DNA of 64,000 nt from an uncultured Candidatus Saccharibacteria bacterium (GCA_964462215.1 CAYWVZ010000001.1:26128-90127); one strand, 5' to 3'. Shown: positions 5,817 through 26,936, counted from the first letter of the stretch. Notes: generated by a model from the letters alone, not told the origin. A program made the numbers and translations.

Positions 5817-6008
5817 AACCCTATTATACCCTCGTACCGTCTCTTTGTTGTTTATGCTACCATGAGCAATAATGGCAACAGCACTAAAAGCCAACAAAAA
5901 CCCCAAACACTTGCTTATTACCTTGCTCGGCTTGGCAATCTGCCGATTATGTTGCCGGCTTTGGGGATAGTTGTGCAGAGCTAGTCTCGAGAATTATAAC
6001 AAAGGGTG

Positions 6009-6054
6009 GAGCTAGGAACCCGGTCAGGGTTTTTGACTGCTTGGTCTGGCTCCA
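6009..6054 (-). repeat. att-like repeat copy 1 (distal island boundary): degenerate hairpin + TGCTTGGTCTGGCTCC
   Basis: GGAGCTAGGAACCCGGTCAGGGTTTTTGACTGCTTGGTCTGGCTCC, followed by a T-arm-like remnant GGTCTTGAACCC. Confidence 0.8.
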
Positions 6055-6109
6055 CCTGTCGGTCTTGAACCCGTGATTTTTTAGTATAGTTTAGTATAAT
6101 AGTTGTTGT

Positions 6110-6844
6110 ATGAAGATTATGTCCCTTAATGTGTGGCAAGGACGCTTAGAACGAGTCTTACTTAAACACTTAGAGACTTTGAATCTAGATTTTGCATGCA
6201 TGCAAGAAGCCATTGATTATGACGGCTTCTCTTTAGGTCTGGTAAGTTCGTACCAGAAGATTGGAGACAGCCTCAGACTGGATCAGCAATTCTTTTCCCC
6301 GTTGTTAGCGACAAAACTGGGAAATAAGCAAATGACGTTCGGAAACGCGACGTACTCTCGCCTTCCGTTTTCTCAAACAAGCACCGTCTTTACACGAGGC
6401 GAGCATACAGATGATTTCGATTTCGATACAGATGACTACAATATCCGCGCATTCCAGCATGCATTGATTGAGGTTGGCGATAAAAAACTAAACATCTTGA
6501 ACCATCATGGACACCACATCGATTCACACAAGCTGGGCGATGAAGAGACCGCACGCCAAGTCACGCAGATCGCTGGCTACATAAAACAACTGGACGGAGC
6601 GGTGATTCTTTGCGGTGACTTTAATCTCGCGCCGGAAAGTGAATCAATTAAGCTACTTGACAGCTTCTTGCATAACCTTCCGGTAGAGCGTTCACTTGAA
6701 ACGACCCGCTCCAGACTGACGTACAAAAATGAGGTGTGCGATTATATCTTTGTAAATGATGAAATCCACGTCAATGACTTTTCAATGGATGAGACGATCA
6801 TTTCCGATCACAACGCACTCATCCTAGATTTTGAAGTTAAGTAA
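6110..6844 (+). CDS. endonuclease/exonuclease/phosphatase (EEP) family protein
   Basis: 244 aa. MSLNVWQG ... FACMQE ... ILCGDFN ... SDHNALILDF is the canonical EEP motif order. Confidence 0.75.
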   Translation: MKIMSLNVWQGRLERVLLKHLETLNLDFACMQEAIDYDGFSLGLVSSYQKIGDSLRLDQQFFSPLLATKLGNKQMTFGNATYSRLPFSQTSTVFTRGEHTDDFDFDTDDYNIRAFQHALIEVGDKKLNILNHHGHHIDSHKLGDEETARQVTQIAGYIKQLDGAVILCGDFNLAPESESIKLLDSFLHNLPVERSLETTRSRLTYKNEVCDYIFVNDEIHVNDFSMDETIISDHNALILDFEVK

Positions 6845-6864
6845 CCCAGTACTTAACTAAAGGG

Positions 6865-6913
6865 GATCGGCCTAGGAACACGGCCTACCTTTTTGACTGC
6901 TTGGTCTGGCTCC
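6865..6913 (-). repeat. att-like repeat copy 2
   Basis: GATCGGCCTAGGAACACGGCCTACCTTTTTGACTGCTTGGTCTGGCTCC. The 24 nt TTTTTGACTGCTTGGTCTGGCTCC are identical to copies 1 and 4. Confidence 0.85.
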
Positions 6914-7022
6914 GCATACCGGTCATGAACCCTGAGGCGCTTAAGCAGCTGACTCAATACATGGATTGTTTGATAGAAATGGACCTACATGCAAAACGTA
7001 TCGCAACAGAGATAAGTGCGAC

Positions 7023-7055
7023 AAATGAGACACTACTATAGGGTGTCTCATTTTT
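7023..7055. terminator. 11-bp perfect hairpin AAATGAGACAC / GTGTCTCATTT flanked by A/T runs (bidirectional terminator-like)
   Basis: Read directly; 9-nt loop, followed by T5. No obvious upstream gene apart from the EEP gene 180 nt away. Confidence 0.5.
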
Positions 7056-7116
7056 GCTAACTAAAGGAAATGATCACTTAACAAGTATTTGTTCGCTGGG
7101 GTGTATAATTCTGACT

Positions 7117-7635
7117 ATGAAACCAAAAAGTGACCCAGGCAGCCTAAGGAGTGGCCTAGTTGTCGGACAAATTCAGCTCACCTTTTTGTTGGCACTGATT
7201 TTTGTGGTGTCATACGTTCTATTCAATTTAGGTAACGAGCAGACAACATTAACATTTATACAATGGTATTTGGGAATATTCATGCTTGCTTTTGCGGCTA
7301 TCAAACTGCTGGATTATAGAATGTTTGTATTAACGTTTTCTACTTATGACTTTGTGGCCAAGCGAGCAAAAGTGTACGCGCGGATATATCCCTTTATTCT
7401 ATTAGGGCTTTCCGGAATGTATCTTATCGACATACTCCCACATTTTCGTAACATCACTACTCTCATTGTCGGCTTAGTTGCCAGCATTGGGGTAATTAAA
7501 GATGTGTATATACAGCGAAACCAGCTATCCTGTGGAATACTCGGAAGAGTCATAAAGATGCCTTTTACCACGATGAGCTTAATAGAATGTGCAGCCTTAA
7601 TTAGCTTGTCAGTTCTGAGCCTGGTATTGATGTAA
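7117..7635 (+). CDS. integral membrane protein (4-5 TM), family unclear (possibly MauE/DoxX-like)
   Basis: ATG 7117 chosen over TTG 7054. Multiple hydrophobic helices. TATAAT at 7104-7109 sits immediately upstream. Confidence 0.5.
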   Translation: MKPKSDPGSLRSGLVVGQIQLTFLLALIFVVSYVLFNLGNEQTTLTFIQWYLGIFMLAFAAIKLLDYRMFVLTFSTYDFVAKRAKVYARIYPFILLGLSGMYLIDILPHFRNITTLIVGLVASIGVIKDVYIQRNQLSCGILGRVIKMPFTTMSLIECAALISLSVLSLVLM

Positions 7636-7906
7636 TATATGCATTTTCGATCTGTTTTATACTATTTTTCACTACTTGTGACATTTACAAAGTAATGGCT
7701 TTTGACACCAGCAATTTGCTGTGCTTAACTGCACATATCAACTAGCGTATAATCCACGGAGATTTAGCCGTTTCGCAGTTGACCATTAAGGCGTATTAGC
7801 CAAGATTAAACTAATTTAATTTTGGCAAGGCGTGGTCAACAGCAAGCGGTATTTTTATTTGCCACGAGTCTGGTCATACCCTTGCCTGCAAAAAGGAGCT
7901 GCCGCT

Positions 7907-9292
7907 ATGGCGACAAATACGCACGAGTTAAAAATAAAAATGGTAAATATAAAAGAACTAAAGAGCTCAGAATACAACCCACGCAAATGGAGTGACTCGG
8001 CAACTGAGCAACTAACCGAAAGCATCATGCGTTTTGGCATGGTAGATCCGATTCTCTGCAACCAAGCACCAAGACGAGAGAATGTAGTAATTGGTGGTCA
8101 CTTTAGGCTCAAGGTAGCTAAAGAGCTGGGCTACACCGAGGTGCCGGTAGCATACGTCAACATCCCAGACCTTGCCAAAGAAAAAGAGCTGAACCTACGT
8201 CTTAATAAGAACTTGGGTGAATGGGACTTTGCCCTACTCAAAGACTTTGACGAATCCATACTGGACGATGTAGGATTTTCCAGCGAGGAGATTGATGACA
8301 TCTTTGAGATCGAGGATGACGAGGAGCAAAGTAATTACAGCCTGAAGAAGGAGCTAAACAAGCTAGGCATCACCAAAATTGAACTGCAAAAAGGCGATGT
8401 ATTCCAGCTCGGCGATTCACGGCTAATGGTCGGTGACAGCACTATTGAAGCAGACATGCTGAAACTCATGAACGGCGAGAAAGCTGATCTATGTCTGACA
8501 GACCCTCCATATATACTTGATTACTTGCACGCCAAGCGGCACGGCAAGCCCACGACTGGCTTCGGCTCAAAGCGAAACCGGCGTTATCTCGAAACTGACG
8601 TGCTACCCGACAACTTTACTGAGTTATGGATGGGTAATATCGCTAGTGTCGCCAAGTCGGACTTCAGCATCATCTGCTACGAGAACTGGAAGAATATGCG
8701 CACCATATGGAACGAGATGGAGAAACACTGGAAGATTAAAAACATGATCATATGGCACTTGCCTAACCGCAACCAAGGATTTGCTGCTAAGTACAAGTTT
8801 TTTAGTAAATACGACATCGCTATGGTTGGAGCCTCGGGCGAAGTCCCCTACAACCTTGATGAGGAAGAAAGCGGTCTCCAGGAGACCTACGAGTCCGCCC
8901 TTTTCGCTACATCGGGTCGCCCCCAGTGGGAAGGTTACGAAAAAGGCAAAAAGTACTTACCGACTGACTTTATTGACTTCAATGCCGCCGATGAACAAAG
9001 TTCAGGACAAGCTGTCATATTCGGCGTAAAACCTCTGGAGATACTAATCCCGTACATTAAGGTGCTAACGAAGCGTGGTGACTTGGTGGTCGAACCTTTC
9101 TGTGGCTCGGGCAGTACGCTTATTGCCTCCACCAAGCTAAACCGCAGGTGCTATATCATGGAGAAATCTCCAGTCTATGCCGAGATAGCCATTCGAAGGT
9201 GGGAAAAAGAAACAGGGTTAAAGAGGAAGCGGATCCATGAGGGCAAAGACCAAAAAGCAGAAACGACAGCTGCTGAACGAACTGGTAAATAA
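7907..9292 (+). CDS. ParB-like N-terminal domain fused to a beta-class N4/N6 DNA methyltransferase (orphan)
   Basis: ATG 7907 follows AAGGAG. SEYNPRKW ... GGHFRL (ParB-N). LCLTDPPYILDY (motif IV) lies upstream of EPFCGSGST (motif I). No restriction partner is adjacent. Confidence 0.8.
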   Translation: MATNTHELKIKMVNIKELKSSEYNPRKWSDSATEQLTESIMRFGMVDPILCNQAPRRENVVIGGHFRLKVAKELGYTEVPVAYVNIPDLAKEKELNLRLNKNLGEWDFALLKDFDESILDDVGFSSEEIDDIFEIEDDEEQSNYSLKKELNKLGITKIELQKGDVFQLGDSRLMVGDSTIEADMLKLMNGEKADLCLTDPPYILDYLHAKRHGKPTTGFGSKRNRRYLETDVLPDNFTELWMGNIASVAKSDFSIICYENWKNMRTIWNEMEKHWKIKNMIIWHLPNRNQGFAAKYKFFSKYDIAMVGASGEVPYNLDEEESGLQETYESALFATSGRPQWEGYEKGKKYLPTDFIDFNAADEQSSGQAVIFGVKPLEILIPYIKVLTKRGDLVVEPFCGSGSTLIASTKLNRRCYIMEKSPVYAEIAIRRWEKETGLKRKRIHEGKDQKAETTAAERTGK

Positions 9293-9686
9293 TCCTCTCA
9301 TAGAACGAGCTTGCAAGAAAATCGGAGTTGCCCGCTCCACCTTTTACCGGTGGTGCGTGGCAGATCCGGCCTTTAAGGAAGAAGCTGAAGCAGCGATAAC
9401 TAAGGGGCGCGAGAAAATGAACGACTTTGCGGAGTCCAAGTTACTTGAGTCAATTAGCCTTGGCAACTTACAGGGCATACGATACTGGCTGGATCATAAT
9501 TCCAAGCGTTATGCAGGTGTAAGCTCGGCAGAATTGAAACGTCTACGATTCTTCGAATCCGTAGTGTATGACTTATTAGATAAGGCTGCATTTGGAAATG
9601 ATTTTGAAGTCTTTAATGTTATTGCTAAACTTCGGGACCAAGCCGAAAAACAAATACAGGAGGAAAAGAACAGAACTGAGATATAA
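9237..9686 (+). CDS. small HTH protein (phage terminase-small-subunit-like / homeodomain-like)
   Basis: 149 aa. ACKKIGVARSTFYRWCVADPAFKEE is an HTH. RBS AGAGGAAG. Overlaps the methyltransferase gene end by 56 nt. Confidence 0.45.
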   Translation: MRAKTKKQKRQLLNELVNNPLIERACKKIGVARSTFYRWCVADPAFKEEAEAAITKGREKMNDFAESKLLESISLGNLQGIRYWLDHNSKRYAGVSSAELKRLRFFESVVYDLLDKAAFGNDFEVFNVIAKLRDQAEKQIQEEKNRTEI

Positions 9687-9795
9687 TGGGACTTGTCTAG
9701 GATTCAAACAATTAGTTAACGTAACTTCCGTTGCGTAGTTATGCCGTAAAATGGGCAGCTACGTAAAAAAGAATAGGCATAACTGCTTGTTTGGG

Positions 9796-9842
9796 TCCTA
9801 GACAGTCCAGCGTGGCTGTCCTTTTTATTTGGTCTAGCTTTC
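9796..9842 (-). repeat. decayed att-like repeat copy 3 (overlaps a plus-strand terminator-like hairpin at 9801-9830)
   Basis: TCCTAGACAGTCC..CTGTCCTTTTTATTTGGTCTAGCT compared with GGTCTAGGAAC..GGTCTACCTTTTTGACTGCTTGGTCTGGCT in the good copies; same orientation. Confidence 0.5.
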
Positions 9843-9887
9843 ATCGCTGGCATGTGTCATTACTTGTCGCTTGCAAAGGAGAAAGCT

Positions 9888-10589
9888 ATGCAACAACCAA
9901 ATAAGAAGAAGTTATCAAAGAAGCCTTGGCATAAAAAATCATGGGGCGTTGTCCTTATTATTCTGTCAGTCATTACACTGACGTTCCCAATAGTGCTGTT
10001 TGTACTAATGTGGCAATCAAAGAAGTTCCCGGAGTGGGCAAAAATCGCCATCACAGCATTTGTCGTTATTGCAGCTATCGGTGCTGTCGGCTCGGAAGAA
10101 TCCGGCAATCAGACCAGCCAGAATAACAGCCCTGCTCAAGCCACCGAGCAAAAGCAAGCCGAAGAAGAACAAAAGAAAAAAGAAGCTGAAGCCTCCTACC
10201 AAAAAGTACTGGATACTTACGCCCCCGTATACTGCGCCAATCACCAAGACATAACTGTAAACGAGCCAACCCTACACGCAGATGGCTGGCCTATGGCAGA
10301 TAACAGAAAAGGTATTACCGCTGATGAGTGCAAGATACTTATAGGGCTGCTGTACTTACAGCGAGATGGCTATGCTAACCAAGAAGCATGGATTAAGTCA
10401 GTAGCAGAACGTAAGGTCGCTATCGGTATGACAAAAGTAGAGGTTGTGTACGCATGGGGTAGCCCGAGCGATATAAACCGCACTATAACCGGTGGTAACA
10501 CTCACGAGCAGTGGGTATTCGGCAACCCGATATACGGCGCAAACTACGTCTACTTCGACAATGACCTAGTAACAAGTATACAAAACTAA
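9888..10589 (+). CDS. membrane-anchored protein with a Lys/Glu-rich linker and a C-terminal SmpA/OmlA (BamE)-like domain
   Basis: ATG 9888 follows AAAGGAG. TM WGVVLIILSVITLTFPIVLFVLMW. C-terminus MTKVEVVYAWGSPSDINR...EQWVFGN...VYFDNDLV resembles BamE-type domains. Confidence 0.5.
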   Translation: MQQPNKKKLSKKPWHKKSWGVVLIILSVITLTFPIVLFVLMWQSKKFPEWAKIAITAFVVIAAIGAVGSEESGNQTSQNNSPAQATEQKQAEEEQKKKEAEASYQKVLDTYAPVYCANHQDITVNEPTLHADGWPMADNRKGITADECKILIGLLYLQRDGYANQEAWIKSVAERKVAIGMTKVEVVYAWGSPSDINRTITGGNTHEQWVFGNPIYGANYVYFDNDLVTSIQN

Positions 10590-12067
10590 CGAATACTTGT
10601 TAGACGGTTCAATATCTCTACCATTGCCAAGGTATCAAGTTTGCAGTATTTGAGTAAGTCGTTGTAGGTTTTCTCGGCTTCGTCAGGATTCAGAGCGCCC
10701 GTAACTGCATCAAACCACCTTACAGCGGCAACATCACCCTTTTGTATATCCAAGTCTTTATACGAATGCTCGGGTACCAGTACGGGTAATACGGCCTTGA
10801 TGGAGCAACTGCCCTTGAAATCTGGGTGTACATAGAGCTGTTTCGCAAAAATGTCTTTCAGATCAAATACCCTGTCATTAACACCGTGCAGGAAATTAGC
10901 ATACTCAGGGTAGAGCGTTGCCATTTCAGCGTTTCTGCCAACCTCGAACGATTTATGCCAAACTAAGACACTACCTGTATTGCCAATGTGATCTCTCATG
11001 GTACTGACCAGTTCTTCTATAGGATTAGTGCTAGCATCAGTGCTTAAGTATTCGTAATGTTCAGGCTCTGCGTTTGCTTCCTTTAGAACGTGCAACGAAT
11101 ACTGGAATGGTACTTGCTGGTATGGATGGCAGCGATTGAACATTGGCAGAGCGGTAGAAATGCTTTCGTAATCCAAAAAGTACAGCGGATAACTCAGTTC
11201 ATCAAGCATGAGGGCTATGCCAGCAGTGTCTATAATCGGTTCGCCAGATTTTGCTACCTGTACTTGCTTGGCTTGTGGTGGGGTTAGCTTAAAATCGTCA
11301 GGCACGTCAGTAAGACTAAAGATCTCATCATCTACTAGGCTAGCTAGTTTCTTGCCTTGCATGCGAGCAATGTCGAAAACGGAATACTCAGGAACATCGG
11401 GGTTAAAATACCGGAAAGTCGGGCAGTGTTTGCCACGCGAAAGTAAACGGCAACTACAACCCTTTGGCTCGGTCTTGTCCTTCAAACGATGTAGGGCATC
11501 GCTAACTTGCTGGCGAATTATTTCGATCAGCTCTGCTACTTGCTCGTCAACACAAGTTTTTGTGAGCAAACTACCAACATCAACGGTTTCGCTGTTACGA
11601 ACGTACTCTTTATTCATATGCACTACGTAGGTACTAACGATATTGTAGCCAGCAGTCTCAAAAGCTACCCGCTGAAATGCAATGTCGCTATAGTGCTCCT
11701 TTTTGATAGAATTCGTGGACTTTATTTCGTATAGAACCCAGCCGTCTTGTGCCTCGTCATACTCCAATACGTCAGCCATAGCCAATAAACCGTTGTCGGT
11801 CACAACGGTTGCTTGAAAGATAGTTCTAGCGCCATTCGCAATTAGCTTTTCAGTTTCGGGCTTTGCTTGATGACCTTTGGCTTGTACTAGGGCCACATTA
11901 CTGAATAGTGTGCGGGCATAGCGTTCAATTTCGTTACCTTGTTCAAGCCGCTGCTTGGCAACCTCTTCCTGATCATCGGATGGCACTAACTCACGTTTGT
12001 GTTTCCATAGCCAAAAATAGCTAGGGCAGATTTGGTATTTCAGGAAATCGGATTTAGATAAATGCAT
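10586..12067 (-). CDS. DUF2779-family protein: N-terminal Cas4/RecB-like PD-(D/E)XK nuclease plus C-terminal RNase-H-fold (DEDD-like) domain
   Basis: 493 aa. N-terminus LSKSDFLKYQICPSYFWLW. DVLEY...LYEIKS (D..ExK). Cys cluster C14 + CSCRLLSRGKHC. Later YFLDYES (DxE). The start abuts the upstream stop (TAAATG). Confidence 0.6.
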   Translation of the reverse strand: MHLSKSDFLKYQICPSYFWLWKHKRELVPSDDQEEVAKQRLEQGNEIERYARTLFSNVALVQAKGHQAKPETEKLIANGARTIFQATVVTDNGLLAMADVLEYDEAQDGWVLYEIKSTNSIKKEHYSDIAFQRVAFETAGYNIVSTYVVHMNKEYVRNSETVDVGSLLTKTCVDEQVAELIEIIRQQVSDALHRLKDKTEPKGCSCRLLSRGKHCPTFRYFNPDVPEYSVFDIARMQGKKLASLVDDEIFSLTDVPDDFKLTPPQAKQVQVAKSGEPIIDTAGIALMLDELSYPLYFLDYESISTALPMFNRCHPYQQVPFQYSLHVLKEANAEPEHYEYLSTDASTNPIEELVSTMRDHIGNTGSVLVWHKSFEVGRNAEMATLYPEYANFLHGVNDRVFDLKDIFAKQLYVHPDFKGSCSIKAVLPVLVPEHSYKDLDIQKGDVAAVRWFDAVTGALNPDEAEKTYNDLLKYCKLDTLAMVEILNRLTSIR

Positions 12068-12919
12068 TTACTTTGTATTCTTGTCTTTTAGGATGGTAAT
12101 TAAAGCAATACTCAGATGCAATACGGTGTGTGCATCTTCATAATCTGGATCGTTGTCAGTGCCAGAGTTATGTACGCTTCTTTTATTAACAAAAGAAGTC
12201 AATGAGGTTATTAATGATGGCCAATCAAGAATATCTTTTTTCGGTAAGTCCAGTTTATCAATATTATCTGAGATTTGCTTTGCATATTTACCTAAGTTGG
12301 TCGTTTTGTCATCTGGGTAGAGTCTGTCCCTGATTGCTCCCGCTAGCTGATCTAGTGATTTCTGCACTACGCTAGGGAGATTTTGACGCGATACATCGTA
12401 TAGGTCATTCCACGCTTGCTGTATGCGTTTATTATCCTCAAGCTGTGAAAGCTGTAAGTCAGCTTCTTCTGGAACTCTGAATTGCAAACTTATGGACACA
12501 CTGTGCCAATTTGGATCTGGAAGCCCCTGATTATTTTGCCGTACCGGCTTAGACTCAGAATGAACTGTATATTCTGAATTTGCCCCACTTAATATGTCCT
12601 CAAGCTCCCTGGCCGATGCATCATCTGGGTATGTCTGTAGAAGGTAGTTGATGTAATCTGCGATAAGCTCATTATTGCCTGATATTGATGCAGTGTGCGC
12701 TTCTAAATTATCTCCAAAGCTGCGTCTAAAAGCAGCGCTAATTTTTGCATTAAAACTATCGCTGATAGTTGTGTACATAGTGTTATACACTGATGGTTGA
12801 GGCGTATGGCCCTGTACATGGGCGCTAATCCATCTGAATACAGAGTCTTGCAAGAAAGGCGGAAAGCCTTTGGTTATCTCATTGGCATTATTATCTGGGT
12901 ATAAACGGTTAAAACTCAT
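12068..12919 (-). CDS. hypothetical protein; its C-terminal helix pair resembles an abortive-infection Abi_C-type domain
   Basis: 283 aa. The C-terminus VNKRSVHNSGTDNDPDYEDAHTVLHLSIALITIL is reminiscent of the RN..aHG...a..l.la motif of Abi_C. Weak by-eye similarity only. Confidence 0.35.
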   Translation of the reverse strand: MSFNRLYPDNNANEITKGFPPFLQDSVFRWISAHVQGHTPQPSVYNTMYTTISDSFNAKISAAFRRSFGDNLEAHTASISGNNELIADYINYLLQTYPDDASARELEDILSGANSEYTVHSESKPVRQNNQGLPDPNWHSVSISLQFRVPEEADLQLSQLEDNKRIQQAWNDLYDVSRQNLPSVVQKSLDQLAGAIRDRLYPDDKTTNLGKYAKQISDNIDKLDLPKKDILDWPSLITSLTSFVNKRSVHNSGTDNDPDYEDAHTVLHLSIALITILKDKNTK

Positions 12920-13016
12920 GCGAATATTTGTTGGAGCAAGTTTTTTGGATTTTTTACTACTCCAGCTTCCTTTTAACTGGTTCTATTTTATCACCTTAGG
13001 TAATAAAGAGTCGGAT

Positions 13017-16726: not shown

Positions 16727-16802
16727 TATACCTTAAAAACAGATATAAATCTGGAAGATTCGCCTAGACTTTATATTCCTTTGCGGTACCTTGTACCTTG
16801 CT

Positions 16803-18077: not shown

Positions 18078-18102
18078 AACCTGATACCCTATAATAGATA
18101 GT

Positions 18103-18918: not shown

Positions 18919-18988
18919 GGTAATCCATACATCAAAACTAAGTGAAGATCATAAAAACCAGAAAAACCCGAAGATCAAGGGTGTCCTA

Positions 18989-21900
18989 TTAGGCTGTGAT
19001 ATTTTTGTCGATAAGCTGTGTTAGCCTACTAAACTCACGGTCGGTGTCGTCTAGCCAGTTAGTTGACCATATGCGGTACAGCTCCCAACCCTTCTCTTCG
19101 AGCACCTTTTGACGGTTATAGTCGCTCTGTTCTTTATCAAAGCCACTGTGGTACATTGCGCCGTCCATTTCTATACCCAATACAAATTTCTTGTGCTTGG
19201 TAGAGAATACTCCAAGATCAATCCTAAAACCAACATTACGTTCATTAGCATCTATGCCTTCACCAGTAGGAATTAGTAAATGCCATCCAACCTCACTGTA
19301 TATCTTAATGGAGTGACCGAGCTGATCCGCATAATGATCTGTCAACTTCTCATAGAGTTGTTGCGTTAGTGGCGAATCGAACCAATTGACATTATTGCCC
19401 AGCTTTCGATCAAGATATGTAGTGTCCGTGACTTCTCCAGCATTTTGCAATAGTGCCTTCATCAATTCGGCACTCTTACGGGCATTCGGTCCAGTTAAAC
19501 CGCTGCTTATTTTATCTTCACAAGTCTGTATCCAGCGGGATTTTTGATCCGCTAGTAGTAATTTCAAGCCTTCTCGTTGACGAGTAATCGAGACGTTTAG
19601 ACGCTTGTACGCACCGGCTGCTTCTTTGAAGAACCACATAGCACCAGGTGACGAGTAATGTTGCATATAGATTATCGTGTAGGTACCTTCAATGCCCTGA
19701 CAGTTTGTAACAGTAGAAAGTAGAATCTTATCAGTTCCATAGAGCCGTGAAATGTTCTGATACTTTTGCTCACCGATTTGAGTCAAGAAGTTCTTAAACT
19801 CGGTTAGTTTATGCCCAGTAGTGAAAAGGATACAAAAACTTGAATCGCTATCCTGAACCAGATATTCATCAACTGATTCGCAGATTTTGTAAAAGTTTTT
19901 ATCATAACCAAATTCATCTTGGTCATCACCTAAATCGTCAATGATGTCTATAGGCGCACCGTTAGCAAGTTCCGCTTCAAAGATTGGCTCAATTCCATCT
20001 TCACTATAAATAGCCTCGCGGGACGGCTCAAACAACTTGTTGTATTTGGAACGGTAGTGAACTTTAAGGTGGTGCTGTTTCTGCGGTTGCTTTCGTGCTA
20101 AGTCTAGTATGCTCTCTCCTAGATCATCGAAATCATCTTCCGATTGTTCGGTCAAACCAATACTAGCATTCAGGCTAGGGGGCATTTGGTGTGGGTCGCC
20201 AATAATTACTGCCTTCTTGGCACGATATATTGATGGTAGCGCTTGACCAGGCAATAGCTGCGATGCTTCATCAAAAATAACAAAATCAAAAATACCTTTG
20301 TCTGGTGCTATATACTTTGAGACTTCTTTTGGAGTGGCACAGATGACAGGAAAGGCACTCGCTATAGTTGCAGTGTTGTGCCTGAATTTATCCATAGTAG
20401 ACTTACCGCCCAACTGCATAGTTGACTGTTTCGACAATTCTCGCATTGCGTCCAACGAGCTACTATATATATGTTTAAGGTTATCTTTATAAGTTTGAGC
20501 TTTTTGGCTCTTTAAATACTTTTCATAACTATCGACAATATCCTTAGTAGTAACGTGTTTCTTGTCACTTAATCCAGCACGCCCAAAACTCTCACCCACC
20601 AAAACATTCACCAATCGTGACGCAAACACATCAAAGGTTATATCATTATTTAGTATTTCGTCTAGATACTGGCTATTTGCCCCACCAAGAGCTTGCCTAA
20701 TACTACTTATTGATTTATTGTGCTGTATAAAATCGACGATCTCGGAATCATTATTGTAAATTGACAGGATATTTATACTGCTAAGCCAATCCTGGAGTGT
20801 TTTTTCCTGTGGAAGTTCGAAAAAGAAATCGGAAAACAAGTCTAATTGATTTACTTCATTAATCGTCGTAACGAGCTTTTCTATATCTGAGTTTATCGAT
20901 GCATTATCGTCTGGCAGCGACAAGGTATCAGTAACTTTTCCAATAACTACTTCGTTCCTATCTAAATATTCATAAACCTCTCTGGCTCTTGCGGCATATG
21001 AGTCTGTTTCATTAATACCAATGAGCCACTTGCTGTTTTCTGAGAATGAATTCTGCGTTAGAACCTTTTGCTCATTCAATACTTCAGACTTCTTCTGCTG
21101 ATGATGCTTGATATCTATAGCCTGATTAGCGTCAGTTACGAAATCAGTCAGTTTCCCACCAAGAAATGCTTTTTTATTGTTTGAATCTTGTCGTAGTAAA
21201 TCTAGTGCTTTGACACTACGGCTAAATTCCGAGAACCATCCACTAACCTCTTTGAATTCACCAGCAATTGATGCTGAGCCGTATTTTTTATTTATTATGT
21301 AAAAAAGTTCATACACCGGTAATAACCTATCCTTTAAGACGGTTATGTCTTTAGATGGCTTAACACCCAGCTTTGATAGTTCAATAGTACTATTCTTGTT
21401 AGCCAATCCAATGAACTGCTTAATATTCGACCCATCAATATCTATAATTTCTTTAATCGCATTTAGAATTGGTGCGAAACTTTCCCTATAGGTATCCATC
21501 TGCTTTGCGTTTTCGAATGCAAGCAAATCTTTAAAATTTTTTGGTACACCACTTAACATCCGTTTGATAGAGTTTTGAGCATAGTACTTATCCAGTTCTC
21601 TATTTAGTACATCGATATCTTTTGCGGTTAGCATATAGACTGTATCTTGACCACCCTCTATAGTTTCGCTCAATACGGACTTGATTTGTTTTGCCATACC
21701 GATGAGAAGATTTGATAAGCTAGAGTACTTGACATCGGGTGCCGTTCCTAAGACCACTTTGACTAGTTCGGGTATGCGTTTATGATCCTGTAATAACTCA
21801 CCGAAATCTTGTTCAGCGATGGTTATTGCTTCGGCGCTAAGTTTGATTTGCTCATTTAATTCGTCAGGTATATTGATTTGATATTTAGCACTCTCCGCTA

Positions 21901-22843
21901 CAGAGGTTATGTGCTTATCAATACGCTGAAGCTTCTCGTTATTTTCATGCGTGCCATCTATGAAGTCTTTTAGACTTTTCGTTAGCTCTCCGACTTCCTT
22001 ATGCTCTGTTGCAATCCTATAGGTATCTATGTATTGGATGGATTGATTGTACTTCTGTAACATGATCAGATAGTCAACGACATCTATACTCGTCTTGGTT
22101 GCAAACCGATTGAGATAGTCTCCTTGAAATGTATCGTTTATATTCTTGATCTGCTCTCGAATATCCGGCAATATTATGTTGCTATTCTTGGTAGACAAAA
22201 GTATCAGTTCCCGTCGAGGCTTATTAAATTCCGTAAAATAATCTTTATGCTCGTAGGAATCAAGCTCGGTAAAAACTGCTCGAACGTTAACTTTTTCAAA
22301 TTCTCGAACAGATTCTGGTGCCATGGACCGTCTAACGTATTTGATATAGTAGCCGACCAACTCATCGAAGCCTATATCATCTGACGTGATGTGATAGTTG
22401 CTATTGTGATCAAGAGTCGTGTAGCGCAGAGGATATTGTATAGCTGAAGGTCTGTCTGCCAAAAAGATATCGGGAAGTTGCTTGCTAGTGATTTTAGAGT
22501 ATTGCTCGCGTAAATATTTCAGATACCTATGCGTGGGGTTGTGAAGCATCAAACAAAAGTCCAAAAGTGATAGATACTTATTGTCATTAGGATAGCCTAT
22601 CGTGGACTCGGTGTGCTTTATCATACGCTCTATCACCCTAAGTGCTTCTGTGTTCTGGCTCACGAACAGAACCTTCTTGTTTTCACCCGCTAATCTTTCA
22701 AGCAAGCTAACTACTAGCTGAGACTTTCCGGTTCCCGGTGGTCCATAAACAATTTGTATAGTAGCAGGGTCATTATCAATAGAGTTAAACGTATTCTTTT
22801 GTGACGGATCTAGCGAGCTGAATGTTATATTGTTCTCGCTCAC
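18989..22843 (-). CDS. SF1 (Dna2/Upf1-like) helicase with a large insertion and a C-terminal DUF559/Vsr-like PD-(D/E)XK endonuclease domain
   Basis: 1284 aa, GTG start. LDPSQKN...VYGPPGTGKSQLVVSLL...VLFVSQNTEALRVI (Walker A). FVIFDEASQL (Walker B). IIGDPHQMPP. NVSITRQREG. C-terminus GIEMDGAMYH...VLEEKGWELYRIWSTNW. Confidence 0.8.
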   Translation of the reverse strand: MSENNITFSSLDPSQKNTFNSIDNDPATIQIVYGPPGTGKSQLVVSLLERLAGENKKVLFVSQNTEALRVIERMIKHTESTIGYPNDNKYLSLLDFCLMLHNPTHRYLKYLREQYSKITSKQLPDIFLADRPSAIQYPLRYTTLDHNSNYHITSDDIGFDELVGYYIKYVRRSMAPESVREFEKVNVRAVFTELDSYEHKDYFTEFNKPRRELILLSTKNSNIILPDIREQIKNINDTFQGDYLNRFATKTSIDVVDYLIMLQKYNQSIQYIDTYRIATEHKEVGELTKSLKDFIDGTHENNEKLQRIDKHITSVAESAKYQINIPDELNEQIKLSAEAITIAEQDFGELLQDHKRIPELVKVVLGTAPDVKYSSLSNLLIGMAKQIKSVLSETIEGGQDTVYMLTAKDIDVLNRELDKYYAQNSIKRMLSGVPKNFKDLLAFENAKQMDTYRESFAPILNAIKEIIDIDGSNIKQFIGLANKNSTIELSKLGVKPSKDITVLKDRLLPVYELFYIINKKYGSASIAGEFKEVSGWFSEFSRSVKALDLLRQDSNNKKAFLGGKLTDFVTDANQAIDIKHHQQKKSEVLNEQKVLTQNSFSENSKWLIGINETDSYAARAREVYEYLDRNEVVIGKVTDTLSLPDDNASINSDIEKLVTTINEVNQLDLFSDFFFELPQEKTLQDWLSSINILSIYNNDSEIVDFIQHNKSISSIRQALGGANSQYLDEILNNDITFDVFASRLVNVLVGESFGRAGLSDKKHVTTKDIVDSYEKYLKSQKAQTYKDNLKHIYSSSLDAMRELSKQSTMQLGGKSTMDKFRHNTATIASAFPVICATPKEVSKYIAPDKGIFDFVIFDEASQLLPGQALPSIYRAKKAVIIGDPHQMPPSLNASIGLTEQSEDDFDDLGESILDLARKQPQKQHHLKVHYRSKYNKLFEPSREAIYSEDGIEPIFEAELANGAPIDIIDDLGDDQDEFGYDKNFYKICESVDEYLVQDSDSSFCILFTTGHKLTEFKNFLTQIGEQKYQNISRLYGTDKILLSTVTNCQGIEGTYTIIYMQHYSSPGAMWFFKEAAGAYKRLNVSITRQREGLKLLLADQKSRWIQTCEDKISSGLTGPNARKSAELMKALLQNAGEVTDTTYLDRKLGNNVNWFDSPLTQQLYEKLTDHYADQLGHSIKIYSEVGWHLLIPTGEGIDANERNVGFRIDLGVFSTKHKKFVLGIEMDGAMYHSGFDKEQSDYNRQKVLEEKGWELYRIWSTNWLDDTDREFSRLTQLIDKNITA

Positions 22844-23697
22844 GATTCATAGTCCTTACTGTCAAGCATCTTTCCCCACGCAGGATCAACGTACTCGGCC
22901 TCAAAGCCGGTAACAATCTGAAACGCCATATACTGAGGATTAATCTTAACACTTTTGTATTTAGCAGATAGATTAACGCCATTCATATACTCCGATATAG
23001 TATTTACTTGATTTGCAAAATCAGCATCCAGCGTAACCTCAAAATTATTCGAACGTTTCCGGCCTATTTCATTACCGAAGAAGTTTTTGTCTAGCCAAAA
23101 ATTGATAAAACCTGTTTGCTCTACGGTAGCGTTAAATTTATTTAAATCTAATTCTGGACAAGAAAATAAAAAAAGCGGATAGTTTGCTACTTTATCCTGA
23201 TAGTCAACTACCTCAACCAGACCAATCGTTAAGTAATGCATACGGTCACCCGTCGTACGATATTGAGTATCAGTTTCCTTCTTTAGCTTGTCTAGGTTAC
23301 GACTGATCAATCGGCGCTTAGCTGCTTCAGATAACTTATCCCATATATCACTATCTTTCTCGGTGTTGAATCTTAGTCTATTTATTAAGTTAGCCAGGGA
23401 AAGTTCACCACGCGCTTCGACCTGACGAACTACTTCGTCGTAGCCATTTTTGTCAAAAACCAGGCCCGGCTGGTTACGGCCACCAAGCCTTTGCCATACC
23501 CCTATTGGGGCTTTTGCTTTTTCATCTACTTCAAATAGGGTTTGGTTATCCGGAGTATTCTTGTCAAACACCAAAGATAATCCACTTGCTAAGTTGCCGC
23601 TAGCTATACTTCCTCTGTTGCCAACCAAAACACGCCTAAACTCACCGAATTGCTTCGTATTACTGTACTCAAGAATACTGTCATAAGCGGTAGTCAT
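22840..23697 (-). CDS. hypothetical protein resembling a detached DUF4011 N-terminal module of DUF4011-helicases
   Basis: 285 aa. GTGA overlap with the helicase gene. RMHYLTIGLVEVVDYQDKVANYPLFLFSCPEL resembles the LyLalGfLeW....aPLlL.Pv core of DUF4011. By-eye only. Confidence 0.45.
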   Translation of the reverse strand: MTTAYDSILEYSNTKQFGEFRRVLVGNRGSIASGNLASGLSLVFDKNTPDNQTLFEVDEKAKAPIGVWQRLGGRNQPGLVFDKNGYDEVVRQVEARGELSLANLINRLRFNTEKDSDIWDKLSEAAKRRLISRNLDKLKKETDTQYRTTGDRMHYLTIGLVEVVDYQDKVANYPLFLFSCPELDLNKFNATVEQTGFINFWLDKNFFGNEIGRKRSNNFEVTLDADFANQVNTISEYMNGVNLSAKYKSVKINPQYMAFQIVTGFEAEYVDPAWGKMLDSKDYES

Positions 23698-24039
23698 CTA
23701 GCGCAATTATATCATAATAACAGGGCTAGATATCGGTCTAGGAACCCTGTCTGGTTTTCGGCTGCACAGTCCTCGTAATCAGGATTGGTCAGTTCGGGAA
23801 CCGTTTAACAGAGATGAGAATGAAAGAACCGCTATTTCTAGCGGTTCCAACATCTGTACTTTGTAATCAGCACGTTTCTTTCTTGGCTGACCAAGGAGTT
23901 AAATGAGGGACCGGTCTAGGAACTCGGTCTACCTTTTTGACTGCTTGGTCTGGCTCCGGGGACTGGATTCGAACCTGCAGTAGTTACCACTTTATTTCAG
24001 GCTCGCTTTACTTTAGCTTACATCTGTAAATTATCAAAT
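23698..24039 (-). repeat. inter-cassette junction unit A (secondary decayed att copy, spacer with hairpin, att hairpin+core, tRNA-like remnant)
   Basis: Alignable along its length with units B (25081-25424) and C (26598-26936). Core at 23942-23959; secondary copy at 23733-23772. Confidence 0.8.
23951..24038 (-). pseudogene. tRNA-like remnant (CCA, 3' acceptor half, decayed T-arm; no 5' acceptor strand)
   Basis: The reverse complement ends ...GGTTCGAATCCAGTCCCCGGAGCCA. The 5' region cannot pair with the acceptor 3' strand. About 85-nt block conserved with 25342-25424. Confidence 0.65.
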
Positions 24040-25080
24040 TTAATAAGTAAGGGTAATATTATGTGTAGTAAGATCAATCTTCGCCAAGCCGCCATAGGGC
24101 ATAACGATTTGCGGAGCTGTATGCCCGAAATCTAAGTTCTGAACAATAGGAATATTGGCATTGTATCCCCGGACTGTTTTTACGATTGTCTCGCGCTGTT
24201 GTTTCTTGTAGGCGTCTTTCTGCTCCGGCGAGTTTGGCTTATCGAATTCCCATGACTTTGGTCGTCCAACTAGTACTCCTTGAAAGATATCAAACCACCC
24301 ACGTTCGCCGAAGCCTGTCAGTAGGTACTCAACAATCCATGCCTCGGGGATATCCTCCGCAGTTTCGATAAATAAAATCGTGCCCTCTAGGTCTTCTTGC
24401 TTGGGTAAATACTTTTCGGCAGAACACTGTACTATGAGTGATTCAACGCATCCGCCCCACAAAACACCTTCCCCGCTTTTATCACCATCCCACTTTAGTC
24501 CATCATTTGGCTCAAATTGGCGCTGTTTATCCAGATTTTCTTTTACTGACCAGTTGAGCCCGATGTCATTGAATTCACTAGAAGACTCAACCGCTAGCTC
24601 TCCTGTCTCAAAAAGCGCTTGTCTTAGGTATTTAACATTAAGGTCCGGAATTTTTTGCTGAAAAGCCAATTCAGTCATAATCCCGCCGCCATAGTAAGAG
24701 GGAATACCTAACCCCCATAGAAAATTATGCAAATGAGTGTTGTCGCTATATCCGAAAAATGGCTTAGGATTGGCAGTGAATACTTCAGGGTTGAGTAGCT
24801 TAATAAGCTTTATTTGGTCTTCGCCGCCAATAGAAGCAAACACCGCCTTGTTAGCCTGATCACTAAACGCGGCCATAATATCCTGGGCACGATCTTCCAG
24901 TGATGAGCCCATTTGCCGAGTAGTTGGGTACTCTTTTGGAATCAGTTGAAAGACGTTCTGTAATCTTTCCAGTCCTAAATCCTGTACCCATGGAAATAAA
25001 CCTGGGAGGCCAGCCGAAGGAGAGATGACGCCAACCTGATCGCCAGGCTTAAGCTTTGGAAGTTTCAGGAAGGTTTTCAT
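24040..25080 (-). CDS. S66-family LD-carboxypeptidase (MccF/LdcA-like serine peptidase)
   Basis: 346 aa. LKPGDQVGVISPSAG ... FASIGGEDQIKLI ... FFGYSDNTHLH ... DFGHTAP is the family motif order. Confidence 0.75.
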   Translation of the reverse strand: MKTFLKLPKLKPGDQVGVISPSAGLPGLFPWVQDLGLERLQNVFQLIPKEYPTTRQMGSSLEDRAQDIMAAFSDQANKAVFASIGGEDQIKLIKLLNPEVFTANPKPFFGYSDNTHLHNFLWGLGIPSYYGGGIMTELAFQQKIPDLNVKYLRQALFETGELAVESSSEFNDIGLNWSVKENLDKQRQFEPNDGLKWDGDKSGEGVLWGGCVESLIVQCSAEKYLPKQEDLEGTILFIETAEDIPEAWIVEYLLTGFGERGWFDIFQGVLVGRPKSWEFDKPNSPEQKDAYKKQQRETIVKTVRGYNANIPIVQNLDFGHTAPQIVMPYGGLAKIDLTTHNITLTY

Positions 25081-25424
25081 AGATATATAGTATCAGTTTT
25101 CGGTCATGGAACCCGGTCTGCCTTTCGTCTGCTCGGCCGTCGTATAGGCGACAGGTCAGTTTCGGAACCGAATAACAGAGCTAACAAGTAAAAATCAGTC
25201 GCTTACGACAGTTCCAACAACCACACTACATAATTCTTATTTTGGGAAACCGGGCTCGAACCGAATAACAGATAAGAGGTGGTTTGAGAAAATAGAAAAG
25301 ACCGGTCTAGGAGACCGGTCTACCTCTGTTAGTGCTTGGTCTGGCTCCGGGAACTGGATTCGAACCAGGAGTAGCTACCACCCAATTTCAGGCTCGCTTT
25401 ACTTTAGCTTACATCTGTTATTTA
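25081..25424 (-). repeat. inter-cassette junction unit B
   Basis: Roughly four-fifths identical by eye to unit C over about 260 nt. Contains an extra tRNA 3'-end fragment TGGGAAACCGGGCTCGAACCG (25243-25263) and the duplicated motif CGAACCGAATAACAGA. Confidence 0.85.
25342..25424 (-). pseudogene. tRNA-like remnant (intact T-arm CTGG/ATTCGAA/CCAG, 3' acceptor half, CCA; no 5' acceptor strand)
   Basis: The reverse complement ends ...CCTGGTTCGAATCCAGTTCCCGGAGCCA. The upstream part (GCTAAAGTAAAGC..) does not fold as a cloverleaf. Confidence 0.65.
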
Positions 25425-26570
25425 TCAAAATTCTAGCCAAGTTGTGTCTGAACCGGCGCCCTTGTTCCTGACGCGAATACCTGGATCTGCTGTCACTAAA
25501 CCAATTTCCTGAGCATTTACTCCACGCTCCTCAGCAAGCTCAAGTACTTTATCTGGATCAGGCGTTGCAATTACCATGCCTGGGCCCATGTGCCATTTGC
25601 CATACGCTGTTTTATCGTCAAAGCCACGGATTTCCTGCATTTTGAGCATAATATCTGGTGGTGTATTTGGGTTTGCTATTTCTACGCCAAGCCCACTCGG
25701 CTCAAGCATACGCCCTAGTTTACTTGGTTGACCGCCACCTGTAATGTGAGCGACACCTGTCACCCTTGCGAGGGCAGGTTTAGAAATGTCATAACCGCCA
25801 GTTAGTTCAGAGACGAAGCCAGAGTAAATTATTGATGGAGCTTGTACTAGTTTCCCTAGAGCAACATCACCAAGAGAATGATCGACTGTATTGTGCCAAT
25901 TATCACCATACTCTTTTTTCATTGCTTTTCTAACGTCAGTAATACCATTTGATCGGAAGCCGTGCTCACCAAGACCTATAAGCTTATTTCCGGGCTGGAT
26001 TTGATGACCCGTAAGAATCCGATCTCTATGTGCCATCCATAAAATCGCTGCACCCCAGTTGTAGTTGAATGCACCGTAGCCACCTACCCTATCTCCAAGT
26101 TCAGCTACTTCGCCATTTACAACTGCCACATTCGCAAGAGCTGCTGCAGTTACATAGCCGGTTGCAAGTTGTCGTAATGCTTCTCGCGTATGTTCGGTAT
26201 CATCGAGCTGACGTACATCAAGGATCGTCCCAATTGCTAGCGGCTCTGCACCACGTACGACAGCGTCGTCACAAACCATTGCAAATAAATCATGGGCAAC
26301 TGTCGAATGGTCATCGACTCGTTCAGCTACCTCTACTTTTGTGCCGACTCCGTCGAAGCCTAGGTTTATTTCAAGGTTCACAAAATCTTTGTCAGCGAAT
26401 TGCGCGAGTGGAATTGAACGAAAGCCTGAAAATGACTCGTGAGCCTCTCTTACTAAGCCTGGTCGGTTGTCATGTGTAAGCTTCGAAGCCTCATAAAGCG
26501 CTCTCGATGCATCATCGCCAAGTTCAATGTTTACATCCTGAATAACGCCTCGTTCTGTCATATTATTCAT
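25425..26570 (-). CDS. purM: PurM-family protein (AIR synthase / phosphoribosylformylglycinamidine cyclo-ligase homologue), orphan
   Basis: GFDGVGTKVEVA..HDLFAMVCDDAVVRGAEPL, NGEVAELGD, GLGEHGFRSNG and VAHITGGG align with E. coli PurM motifs. Start ambiguous (26570, 26561 or GTG 26597). Confidence 0.75.
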   Translation of the reverse strand: MNNMTERGVIQDVNIELGDDASRALYEASKLTHDNRPGLVREAHESFSGFRSIPLAQFADKDFVNLEINLGFDGVGTKVEVAERVDDHSTVAHDLFAMVCDDAVVRGAEPLAIGTILDVRQLDDTEHTREALRQLATGYVTAAALANVAVVNGEVAELGDRVGGYGAFNYNWGAAILWMAHRDRILTGHQIQPGNKLIGLGEHGFRSNGITDVRKAMKKEYGDNWHNTVDHSLGDVALGKLVQAPSIIYSGFVSELTGGYDISKPALARVTGVAHITGGGQPSKLGRMLEPSGLGVEIANPNTPPDIMLKMQEIRGFDDKTAYGKWHMGPGMVIATPDPDKVLELAEERGVNAQEIGLVTADPGIRVRNKGAGSDTTWLEF

Positions 26571-26597
26571 CAGTATACTAACAGATAGATTAATCAC

Positions 26598-26861
26598 AAA
26601 GCATATCCAGTTTTAAGCATCGGTCATGGAACGCGGTCAACTTTTTTCCTGCTGGGTTGCCATAGGGCTGACTGGTCAGTTTTGGAACCACCTAACAGAG
26701 GCCGAAAGTAAGAATCAGCTAGTTACAACAGTTCCAACATCCACACTACATAATCCATATTTAGGGAAACAGGACTCGAAACGGATAACAGATAAGGGGT
26801 GATTTAAGTAAATAGAAAAGACCGGTCTAGGAAACCGGTCTACCTCTGTTAGTGCTTGGTT
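26598..26861 (-). repeat. junction unit C (native downstream flank of tRNA-Asn, template of units A/B)
   Basis: Same architecture as unit B: secondary decayed copy at 26621-26661, conserved GTTCCAACATCCACACTACATAAT block, hairpin at 26819-26841. Confidence 0.8.
26811..26841 (-). terminator. rho-independent terminator of tRNA-Asn
   Basis: On the minus strand the arms AGACCGGT and ACCGGTCT pair (8 bp, 7-nt loop), followed by CTTTTCTATTT. Confidence 0.65.
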
Positions 26862-26936
26862 TGGCTCCGGGGAGAGGATTCGAACCTCCGACCTGGGGAT
26901 TAACAGTCCCTCGCTCTACCACTGAGCTACCCCGGA
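26862..26936 (-). tRNA. tRNA-Asn (anticodon GTT), CCA encoded
   Basis: Reverse complement: TCCGGGG TA GCTC AGTGGTA GAGC G AGGGA CTGTTAA TCCCC AGGTC GGAGG TTCGAAT CCTCT CCCCGGA G CCA. 75 nt, cloverleaf folds by hand. Confidence 0.9.

Follow-up and report, generated by a model that had tools for sequence, protein, structure and literature searches.

What has brought a long run of AT-rich DNA directly to the 3' end of an intact tRNA-Asn gene in an uncultured Candidatus Saccharibacteria bacterium, and which recombinase is responsible? Saccharibacteria and other bacteria of the candidate phyla radiation (CPR) have very small genomes, and little is known of how new genes reach them. The locus lies within a stretch of 64,000 nt, hereafter the window, from whose start all coordinates are counted; labels such as L121 denote related loci or contigs. 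An initial interpretation, the sequence-only reading, had described an acquired island anchored at the tRNA-Asn 3' end, made modular by direct repeats and grown by serial accretion, and had ascribed it to a lost or trans-acting (tyrosine) integrase. We retain the island and its accretion, which fits the nested junctions described below, and abandon the missing integrase. In our view the locus is probably a tRNA-Asn-anchored accretion island of Candidatus Saccharimonadales which was built around an element encoding a large serine recombinase (LSR), inserted at the heptanucleotide GGAGCCA, and to which cassettes were added later.

Composition and repeats provide the frame of the island. The GC content amounts to 0.375-0.476 over 6-27 kb compared to 0.49-0.62 in the flanks, and the AT-richness claimed at the outset is thus confirmed by a computed profile which is not flat. 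The 16-mer TGCTTGGTYTGGCTCC is present in exactly five copies in the window, every one on the plus strand and within the island, while 0.07 copies are expected by chance and five were reached in none of 100 shuffles.

6038 to 6053 (c1), 6898 to 6913 (c2), 23942 to 23957, 25333 to 25348 and 26853 to 26868, plus strand: exact copies of TGCTTGGTYTGGCTCC
26862 to 26936, minus strand: tRNA-Asn(GTT), functional and intact (ARAGORN; Rfam tRNA, 70.5 bits)

The common orientation of the copies had been recognised correctly, the first of them having been placed one nucleotide too far to the right (6039-6054 instead of 6038-6053). A 69-nt repeat family covers all five, and each is preceded by the dyad GACCGGTCTAGG-N3-CCGGTCTACC which, as noted before, is degenerate at the two distal copies. 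Within the rightmost copy, nucleotides 26862-26868 are the final seven of the tRNA-Asn (GGAGCCA) and 26853-26861 belong to its flank, which bears out the assignment of 26853-26870 to the genuine tRNA 3' end plus adjoining sequence. GGAGCCA is common to all junctions, and the island begins at the last base of the tRNA gene, for which a promoter-like TTGCCT-17-TATAAT is found at 27000-26972. In the entire window only two real tRNAs pass the Rfam threshold.

The repeat unit, initially put at about 50 nt, had been understated. The three copies proximal to the tRNA (copies 3-5) are embedded in units of about 340 nt (mean column identity 76%) in which a complete pseudo-tRNA is joined to some 230 nt of trailer. 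In tRNA sense, such a unit consists of tRNA-Asn or pseudo-tRNA-Asn, GGAGCCA, GACCAAGCA, a spacer of 8-11 nt, the 17-nt motif GACCGGKTTCCWWGACC (motA), some 150 nt, a decayed tRNA-3'-half copy with a AACCAAGCAG-like ending and a second copy of the motif (motA'), with a cassette gene following 10-70 nt on. The structured trailer which follows GGAGCCA and starts with GACCAAGCA is designated E; it occurs in two 5' types, alpha and beta.

26598 to 26861, minus strand: E1, alpha type, with the GACCAAGCA-type core 3' half, motA at 26824-26840, the decayed tRNA-3'-half copy and motA' at 26622-26638
25342 to 25412, minus strand: pseudo-tRNA-Asn c4, ending in GGAGCCA, D-arm and T-arm recognisable
25081 to 25341, minus strand: E2, alpha type, with motA at 25304-25320, a terminator-like hairpin at 25299-25321 and motA' at 25102-25118
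23951 to 24021, minus strand: pseudo-tRNA-Asn c3, ending in GGAGCCA, 87% identical to c4 (repeat family D3)
23698 to 23950, minus strand: E3, beta type, with motA at 23913-23929, stem P1, the terminator-like hairpin P3 at 23825-23848 and motA' at 23735-23751

E2 is 80% identical to E1 (repeat family D1). In c4 a short hairpin replaces the anticodon arm and the 5' acceptor strand is gone; neither ARAGORN nor Rfam calls it. A terminator-like hairpin is present in each proximal unit. In alpha units it is formed by motA itself (in E1 at 26819-26841), which shows the partial dyad symmetry ACCNGG-TTCCTAGA-CCNGGT. The terminator hairpin that had been assigned to every copy corresponds to the dyad at 26841-26819 and 25321-25299 on the tRNA-sense strand; the 23942 copy uses P3 (23848-23825) instead. 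In beta units, the long-range stem P1 (ACCAAGCAGxGAA with TTCxCTCCTTGGT) encloses motA, and P3, a GNRA-capped hairpin followed by a U-run, looks like the terminator of the tRNA-Asn transcript. In a set of 19 distinct beta units the pairing of P1 and P3 amounts to 95.9% compared to 34-53% in slid controls, compensatory changes occur at six pairs, and the observed covariation score is reached in none of 500 shuffles. As G-U pairs are common on the tRNA-sense strand, selection seems to act at the RNA level. Between 23600 and 27000 neither E nor the pseudo-tRNAs match an Rfam family at the gathering threshold or up to E = 5, and a blastn comparison of E3 with plasmids gave no match. The idea of E as a riboswitch-like leader was discarded since the downstream genes are unrelated and some of them lie on the opposite strand; the cassettes appear to carry promoters of their own.

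The unit recurs in related genomes. A scan of metagenome contigs for the tRNA-Asn T-loop and acceptor end followed by ACCAAGCA yielded 50 loci, in 45 of which motA is located 28 nt from the core start; the five loci devoid of motA are unrelated tRNAs. In most loci of sufficient length motA' follows 175-203 nt beyond motA, and at least 10 loci contain arrays of two to five units. That the repeat might be a dispersed terminator had been named as a check on the sequence-only reading; its restriction to the island within the window and its tie to tRNA-Asn in about 45 metagenome loci speak against this. A further check, an identical gene order in relatives, likewise came out in favour of an island, the cargo at the same locus being different in every one of them. 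A scan of viral contigs for the bare 16-mer returned 39 matches, all due to chance and none with motA, and the searchable literature held no relevant earlier description of such a system in Saccharibacteria.

The central part of the island is occupied by an element of about 17 kb which encodes the only recombinase that we consistently find linked to this tRNA.

6914 to 23697: body of the LSR element, about 17 kb, its backbone syntenic with L179, L181, L182 and L177
16791 to 18077, plus strand (against the tRNA): LSR, 428 aa, with intact YARKSS catalytic motif, zinc ribbon and Cys clusters

The element comprises orf285, a helicase-nuclease (PDC-S37/Hhe-like), a TIR protein, the LSR and a type IIG restriction-modification enzyme, further two unknown open reading frames (ORFs), a DUF2779/Cas4-like protein, orf245, a hairpin element, a helix-turn-helix (HTH) gene (terS-like), a ParB-N6/N4 methylase and a MauE-like membrane protein. 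Overall, the cargo of the island serves mostly defence (type IIG restriction-modification, TIR, helicase-nuclease, Cas4-like), accompanied by a few enzymes. The gene content of the five modules delineated earlier is as had been stated, while the division of 6914-23941 at a supposed sixth copy is not tenable, since the ParB-methylase, the HTH gene, the hairpin element and the LSR move together in relatives.

The LSR matches the Pfam domains Resolvase (PF00239), Recombinase (PF07508) and Zn_ribbon_recom (PF13408) above their cutoffs, and its relatives in the PDB are the SPbeta YokA, TP901-1 and A118 integrases. The nearest NCBIfam families, CcrB, XisF and CcrA, all remain under their cutoffs (CcrB: 121.7 bits, cutoff 900, E = 3e-35; CcrA: 61, cutoff 700). 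The family of this LSR includes more than 120 clusters at 72-87% identity, and its close homologues carry the name Candidatus Saccharimonadales at NCBI, which identifies the host lineage. A cyanobacterial origin was rejected, a count of HIP1 sites having given none. In all eight contexts studied (the window, L165 and the six long contigs L176, L177, L179, L180, L181 and L182), the gene is situated 0.3-8 kb downstream of a unit made up of E and either tRNA-Asn, with or without an intron, or a pseudo-tRNA, and is oriented opposite to the tRNA, the homologues being 71-87% identical. This linkage holds in L180, L181 and L182 too, where the upstream flank is not smpB. Between genomes, the amino-acid identity of the LSR amounts to 74-87% compared to 64-74% for SmpB. 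Among 77 array-side ORFs of relatives, LSR domains are the joint commonest family with four members. Directly upstream of the LSR start, the non-coding motif CTAGACTT-N9-TTGCGGTACCTTGTACC is found in the window (16727-16790) as well as in L165, L176, L177 and L179; it contains the CTAGAC hexamer of motA and is probably a promoter or operator.

The ends of the element could be located by comparison with the relatives.

6898 to 6931, plus strand: distal junction c2 of the LSR element, in tRNA sense GGTTCATGACCGGTATGC-GGAGCCA-GACCAAGCA
6003 to 6071, plus strand: outermost junction c1, with a variant arm (GGTTCAAGACCGACAGGT), GGAGCCA, the core and the left half of motA
6110 to 6844, plus strand: endonuclease/exonuclease/phosphatase (EEP) family gene, 82% identical in amino acids to a gene at the equivalent distal place in L179

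Junction c2 is composed of a mimic of the tRNA 3' half, (CTGTTG...)GGTTCATGACCGGTATGC, designated c2arm, of the 7-nt tRNA end and of a truncated E which belongs to the older module following it. Five genomes (the window, L177, L179, L181 and L182) carry c2arm joined to GGAGCCA beyond the LSR, at a distance of 10-17 kb from E; by our own calculation a chance match (24-mer, at most five mismatches) is expected fewer than 0.001 times per locus. In L181 and L182, c2arm-GGAGCCA is directly followed by a plain terminator hairpin and no E. This arrangement fits the ancestral flank of the tRNA, which suggests that E belongs to the inserted DNA, that GGAGCCA is the shared crossover region and that E and c2arm represent the proximal and the distal arm, respectively. 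The crossover probably takes place at the CCA end of tRNA-Asn, within GGAGCCA. Both c2 and c1 lead into a truncated E (core and motA only), the likeness of c1 to the other copies ceasing after TTCCTAG. Serial insertion at the tRNA is marked by just this joining of the distal arm of one element to the proximal arm of an older one. The complete series of nested junctions reads tRNA-GGAGCCA-E, pseudo-tRNA-GGAGCCA-E, c2arm-GGAGCCA-(truncated E) and c1arm-GGAGCCA, as is to be anticipated from serial accretion with the newer insertions nearest to the tRNA. The EEP module is the oldest recognisable one.

A contiguous c2arm-GGAGCCA-E junction with complete E is found in L183 and L188. The junction in L183 could equally be a tandem junction as an excised circle. 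L188 and L189 belong to one IMG/VR contig of 37 kb (UViG_3300009873_002614) which carries two LSR elements in tandem, one module containing an FtsK/SpoIIIE-type translocase, an APH kinase and an ABC-F protein. Although it is filed as viral, no capsid or large-terminase gene was found among its scanned ORFs. That the IMG/VR contigs containing LSR homologues might be genomes of free phages with an attP site was considered; their gene content (ParB-methylase, restriction-modification, APH, ABC-F and FtsK/SpoIIIE genes, no capsid and no terminase large subunit) indicates chromosomal tandem elements instead.

The supposed sixth, decayed copy of the repeat at 9820-9839 turned out to be the T-tract and tail of a separate, conserved structure.

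9695 to 9835, plus strand: long-hairpin element with terminator, about 140 nt (-52.9 kcal/mol, z = -6.8)

It is located between the HTH gene and orf245, with a TATAAT-like box just upstream, and is found at the equivalent place in L177 and L179. Its arms carry inverted copies of the octamer TCCTAGAC, which forms the core of motA, and the 3' arm is almost complementary to GGAGCCAAACCAAGCAG, located where tRNA and E meet. At 9783-9797 one arm resembles the 16-mer, from which it differs by one gap and one mismatch. Of the six occurrences of the octamer in the window, motA or motA' accounts for four and the hairpin arms for two, while 1.1 are expected by chance; this hints at a shared DNA-binding protein. 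Within the LSR element the hairpin might function as a small RNA or be bound by a protein.

Taken together, these observations are consistent with the following course of events. The LSR element (6914-23950) would have entered the GGAGCCA at the 3' end of tRNA-Asn through site-specific recombination, presumably catalysed by its own LSR. Its proximal end would supply E, i.e. the motif GACCGGKTTCCWWGACC in two copies together with a new intrinsic terminator replacing that of the tRNA, and E3 would represent this end (P' arm, attL side). Its distal end would supply c2arm joined to GGAGCCA, and the joined ends would read c2arm-GGAGCCA-GACCAAGCAG...motA, a candidate attP. New insertions would enter at the tRNA-proximal junction: the older EEP module was left distal, and two small cassettes would later have been placed between tRNA and LSR element, moved either by the LSR in trans, like the pseudo-elements of the staphylococcal cassette chromosome (SCC), or by homologous recombination through E.

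25425 to 26597, minus strand: AIR-synthase/PurM-like gene (148 bits, under the NCBIfam purM cutoff of 236)
24040 to 25080, minus strand: peptidase S66 gene (LD-carboxypeptidase/MccF-like)

Each of these cassettes is bounded by pseudo-tRNA-Asn plus E and is devoid of a recombinase. The PurM-like cassette is found in the same arrangement on the Logan contig L001. The exact S66 protein is also encoded on L121, a 424-kb contig of the Joint Genome Institute (genome of about 45% GC), where the cassette is located between two pseudo-tRNA/E units. From 25127 to 23977 (1151 nt) the window is 100% identical to L121; beyond this block the identity drops to 88% upstream in the alpha E and to 55-70% downstream in the beta E. 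Upstream of tRNA-Asn the two genomes are syntenic (smpB, cobA, GT2 and a GH42-like gene), their syntenic core genes being 63-74% identical in nucleotides and their SmpB proteins 64% in amino acids. The remaining cargo of the L121 array is different, comprising succinyl-CoA-ligase-like genes, a GNAT gene and PadR/ABC genes. Neither arrangement is an assembly chimera, since independent samples contain that of the window (L001 and L123) and that of L121 (L122 and L124) as well. We take the identity, on comparison of the sequences, as direct evidence of a recent transfer of the S66 cassette between distantly related Saccharimonadales.

Several points weigh against an LSR acting in the manner outlined. 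Large serine integrases usually need sites of about 50 bp sharing little beyond a 2-bp crossover and do not normally recombine near-identical sites; long similar repeats and re-insertion beside an occupied tRNA are hence atypical for LSRs, SCC and its Ccr recombinases being a precedent. The LSR of the window is 6 kb away from the proximal junction and adjacent to neither end of the element, and several relatives with tRNA-Asn plus E (e.g. L154, L135 and L160) contain no LSR within the 5-12 kb examined. Neither an excised circle nor an empty site nor a presence/absence polymorphism within a species was observed. Finally, the S66 identity block does not run from core to core: its endpoints lie just after the second core copy (window 25127) and in the T-stem of the pseudo-tRNA (23977), a pattern more readily explained by homologous recombination or gene conversion than by one fixed crossover.

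This last point leads to the alternative which survives best and which we rate as possible, if somewhat less than probable: the LSR would move only its own element of 10-17 kb, and the small cassettes would not be site-specific elements at all, the E unit of about 340 nt serving as portable homology. Cassettes would then be taken up by natural transformation and integrated through RecA-type homologous recombination; alternatively, a circle carrying its own copy of tRNA-Asn and E would be inserted by a Campbell-type single crossover. In either case the spare tRNAs would decay to pseudo-tRNAs. Saccharibacteria are naturally transformable, and a duplication of tRNA plus E would leave pseudo-tRNAs of whole length. 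The S66 block ends in conserved stretches of two different parts of the unit rather than at one equivalent position, the E units combine alpha and beta halves, 5' as well as 3', in mosaic fashion, and all three L121 copies share an identical 35-nt tract from T-arm to core, as from gene conversion; together, the asymmetric endpoints, the mosaics and this tract favour homologous recombination or transformation via E at least for that event. In L181 (19200-19385, minus strand) a functional tRNA-Asn is followed 16 nt on by a second copy, a pseudo-tRNA in which a GC-rich hairpin takes the place of D-arm and anticodon region, while its 3' half is identical to that of the first; E is joined to the second copy only. 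Two features fit this alternative poorly. The pseudo-tRNAs of many genomes share derived features (GTAAGCTAAAGTAAAGCGAGCCTAAAAT...), which implies that they travel with the cassettes instead of decaying independently, and the geometry of core, motA and motA' is kept more strictly than homology arms would need.

Further-reaching, and in our judgement doubtful, is the idea that the LSR-based island reflects a clade-wide gene-capture platform of Saccharimonadales, in which a Ccr-like LSR and a tRNA-Asn landing pad would take up and exchange recombinase-less cassettes, often of one gene, the pseudo-tRNA plus E tag acting as recombination site and terminator. If true, an ultra-small epibiotic bacterium would possess a functional equivalent of the integron based on a serine recombinase, and CPR genetics a ready-made site-specific integration system.

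We regard it as unlikely that the repeats are footprints of tyrosine integrases at tRNA-Asn, lost or encoded elsewhere, with the LSR as incidental cargo. Direct repeats of a tRNA 3' end are the classical mark of tyrosine integrases, the size and partial dyad symmetry of motA suit a simple tyrosine-recombinase core site, and the view is limited to 64 kb of the genome. Against this, a tyrosine recombinase domain is absent from all island ORFs scanned, in agreement with the earlier statement that no such ORF is present, and Phage_integrase is not among the families with at least two members in the 77 array-side ORFs of relatives. The LSR family, on the other hand, is tied to tRNA-Asn and E in eight of eight contexts and the ends of its element are conserved in five genomes. 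motA as a dif/Xer site was tentatively rejected on inspection: the XerD-arm consensus of dif sites is absent, and TTCCTAGA, which we take to resemble the XerC arm of Bacillus dif, is the sole dif-like part. Pseudo-tRNAs of an anticodon-loop type, considered as tyrosine-integrase footprints, are really the 3' exons of tRNA-Asn genes bearing a group I intron.

L126 2490-2707, L132 8034-8211, L150 1947-2180, L162 716-969 and L172 13507-13737: intron-bearing tRNA-Asn (RF00028)

In these five related contigs the intron interrupts the anticodon loop of tRNA-Asn(GUU) (Rfam RF00028, 50-99 bits); ARAGORN missed the genes. Bacterial group I introns in tRNAs are best known from tRNA-Leu, tRNA-fMet, tRNA-Ile and tRNA-Arg.

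That no mobile element is involved, E being a host non-coding RNA or tRNA-Asn 3' trailer and the array a product of local tandem duplication with decay of the extra tRNAs, is very improbable: E does follow tRNA-Asn in nearly all related loci, single-unit ones included, and the covarying stems, G-U pairs and terminators on the tRNA-sense strand do indicate RNA-level selection, but an identical S66 cassette resides in a genome whose core genes have diverged by 26-37% in nucleotides, the low GC content is limited to the island, the cargo at the same locus differs in every relative, and the E-less junctions of L181 and L182 assign E to the inserted DNA.

A few observations concern the surroundings. 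GC content is intermediate (0.49-0.53) between 2000 and 6000, and 0.62 from 1 to 1000. As the outermost junction c1 carries the core and half of motA and no plain terminator, the island may extend to the left of the 6-kb boundary, and decayed island DNA may run leftward through the DUF488 and PhnB-like genes. An exact look-up of the DUF488 protein gave no record, and a genome-collection scan with the flanking alpha-amylase found no close relative (best match 51% identity, other phyla). Elsewhere in the window, a tRNA-Gln gene (59040-59114, minus strand) is accompanied, 184 nt downstream at 58856-58873, by an 18-nt copy of its own 3' end (ATCCCTCCGCCCCAGCCA). Adjoining this copy is a 2-kb stretch of low GC content (0.42-0.44; region 56980-59114, minus strand) with a pyruvyl-transferase-like ORF and an ORF of no assigned family on the other strand; it looks like a second, smaller tRNA-linked insertion. 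Among the relatives, an ORF of 213 aa recurs straight after E, on the opposite strand, in L130, L133, L139, L140 and L164. It probably belongs to the Fic/DOC family, which is matched by four array-side ORFs, and its position between two core copies in L130 implies a cassette-like behaviour.

The tRNA-Asn end thus appears to be a fixed hotspot for defence and accessory genes across many Saccharimonadales, and the core/motA signature would offer a simple means of retrieving the flexible genes of the clade from metagenome data. If the LSR and its sites of about 50 bp work as we infer, they would provide a native integration tool for organisms which are very hard to manipulate genetically.

How does this locus compare with known systems? 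The tycheposons of Prochlorococcus are tRNA-targeted elements flanked by full or partial tRNA copies, older ones being pushed inward; among elements of this type 910 of 937 contain tyrosine recombinases, and an LSR is present in a minority only (Hackl et al., bioRxiv 10.1101/2020.12.28.424599). Shared with them are the specific tRNA target in a streamlined genome, the flanking tRNA copies, successive integration, a cargo for defence and niche adaptation, and remnants situated deeper. In contrast, it is an LSR that recurs here. Instead of a bare partial tRNA, the repeat unit spans about 340 nt and joins a pseudo-tRNA to a structured trailer, single-gene cassettes devoid of integrase and replication genes are numerous, and the host is a member of the CPR.

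A closer parallel in terms of the recombinase is offered by SCC and SCCmec of staphylococci, in which the LSRs CcrAB or CcrC act at the 3' end of rlmH (orfX) and tandem arrays include recombinase-less pseudo-elements. Here as there, an LSR is combined with insertion at the 3' end of a conserved housekeeping gene which is left active, direct repeats bound the elements, and CcrB is the best-scoring named family for the LSR of the window. With 122 bits compared to the Ccr cutoff of 900, however, this LSR is no Ccr orthologue; moreover, the target is tRNA-Asn instead of rlmH, the repeats are far longer than the SCC integration site of 15-18 bp, and the phylum is a different one.

In ICESt1 and ICESt3 of Streptococcus thermophilus, integrative and conjugative elements (ICEs), att-flanked modules without integrase (cis-mobilizable elements, CIMEs) lie in tandem with an integrase-bearing element and are possibly mobilised in trans. 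The tandem of integrase-less modules and a recombinase-bearing element at one site is the same here. Those systems, however, use tyrosine integrases and conjugation modules, while this window contains no conjugation genes; an FtsK/SpoIIIE-like gene is present in the related tandem locus L188. Chromosomal integrons resemble the island in their mostly single-gene cassettes of usually one orientation, a structured repeat, a fixed primary site and a clade-conserved recombinase. They differ in that the island has no IntI tyrosine recombinase, that its cassettes apparently possess their own promoters, that its repeat includes a pseudo-tRNA and a terminator, and that stems P1 and P3 and a direct double motif take the place of the attC architecture (R''-L''...L'-R').

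Domain layout and catalytic motif of the LSR are those of the SPbeta SprA/YokA, A118, TP901-1 and XisF systems. In contrast to serine-integrase prophages, phage structural genes are absent here, the target is a tRNA end and the att similarity is long; ParB-methylase and the terS-like HTH gene nevertheless hint at a phage or satellite ancestry. Tested for the features which define the Ccr family and integrons and which it does not possess, the system is a member of neither. It does combine what characterises a tRNA-anchored integrative island, i.e. an intact tRNA, direct repeats, a deviating composition, a linked recombinase, and variable content with transfer between genomes. New, compared to all of these systems, are the host, which belongs to the CPR, the dedication of an LSR family to the tRNA-Asn end, the 340-nt (approximate length) junction unit of pseudo-tRNA and structured trailer, and the arrays of often single-gene cassettes.

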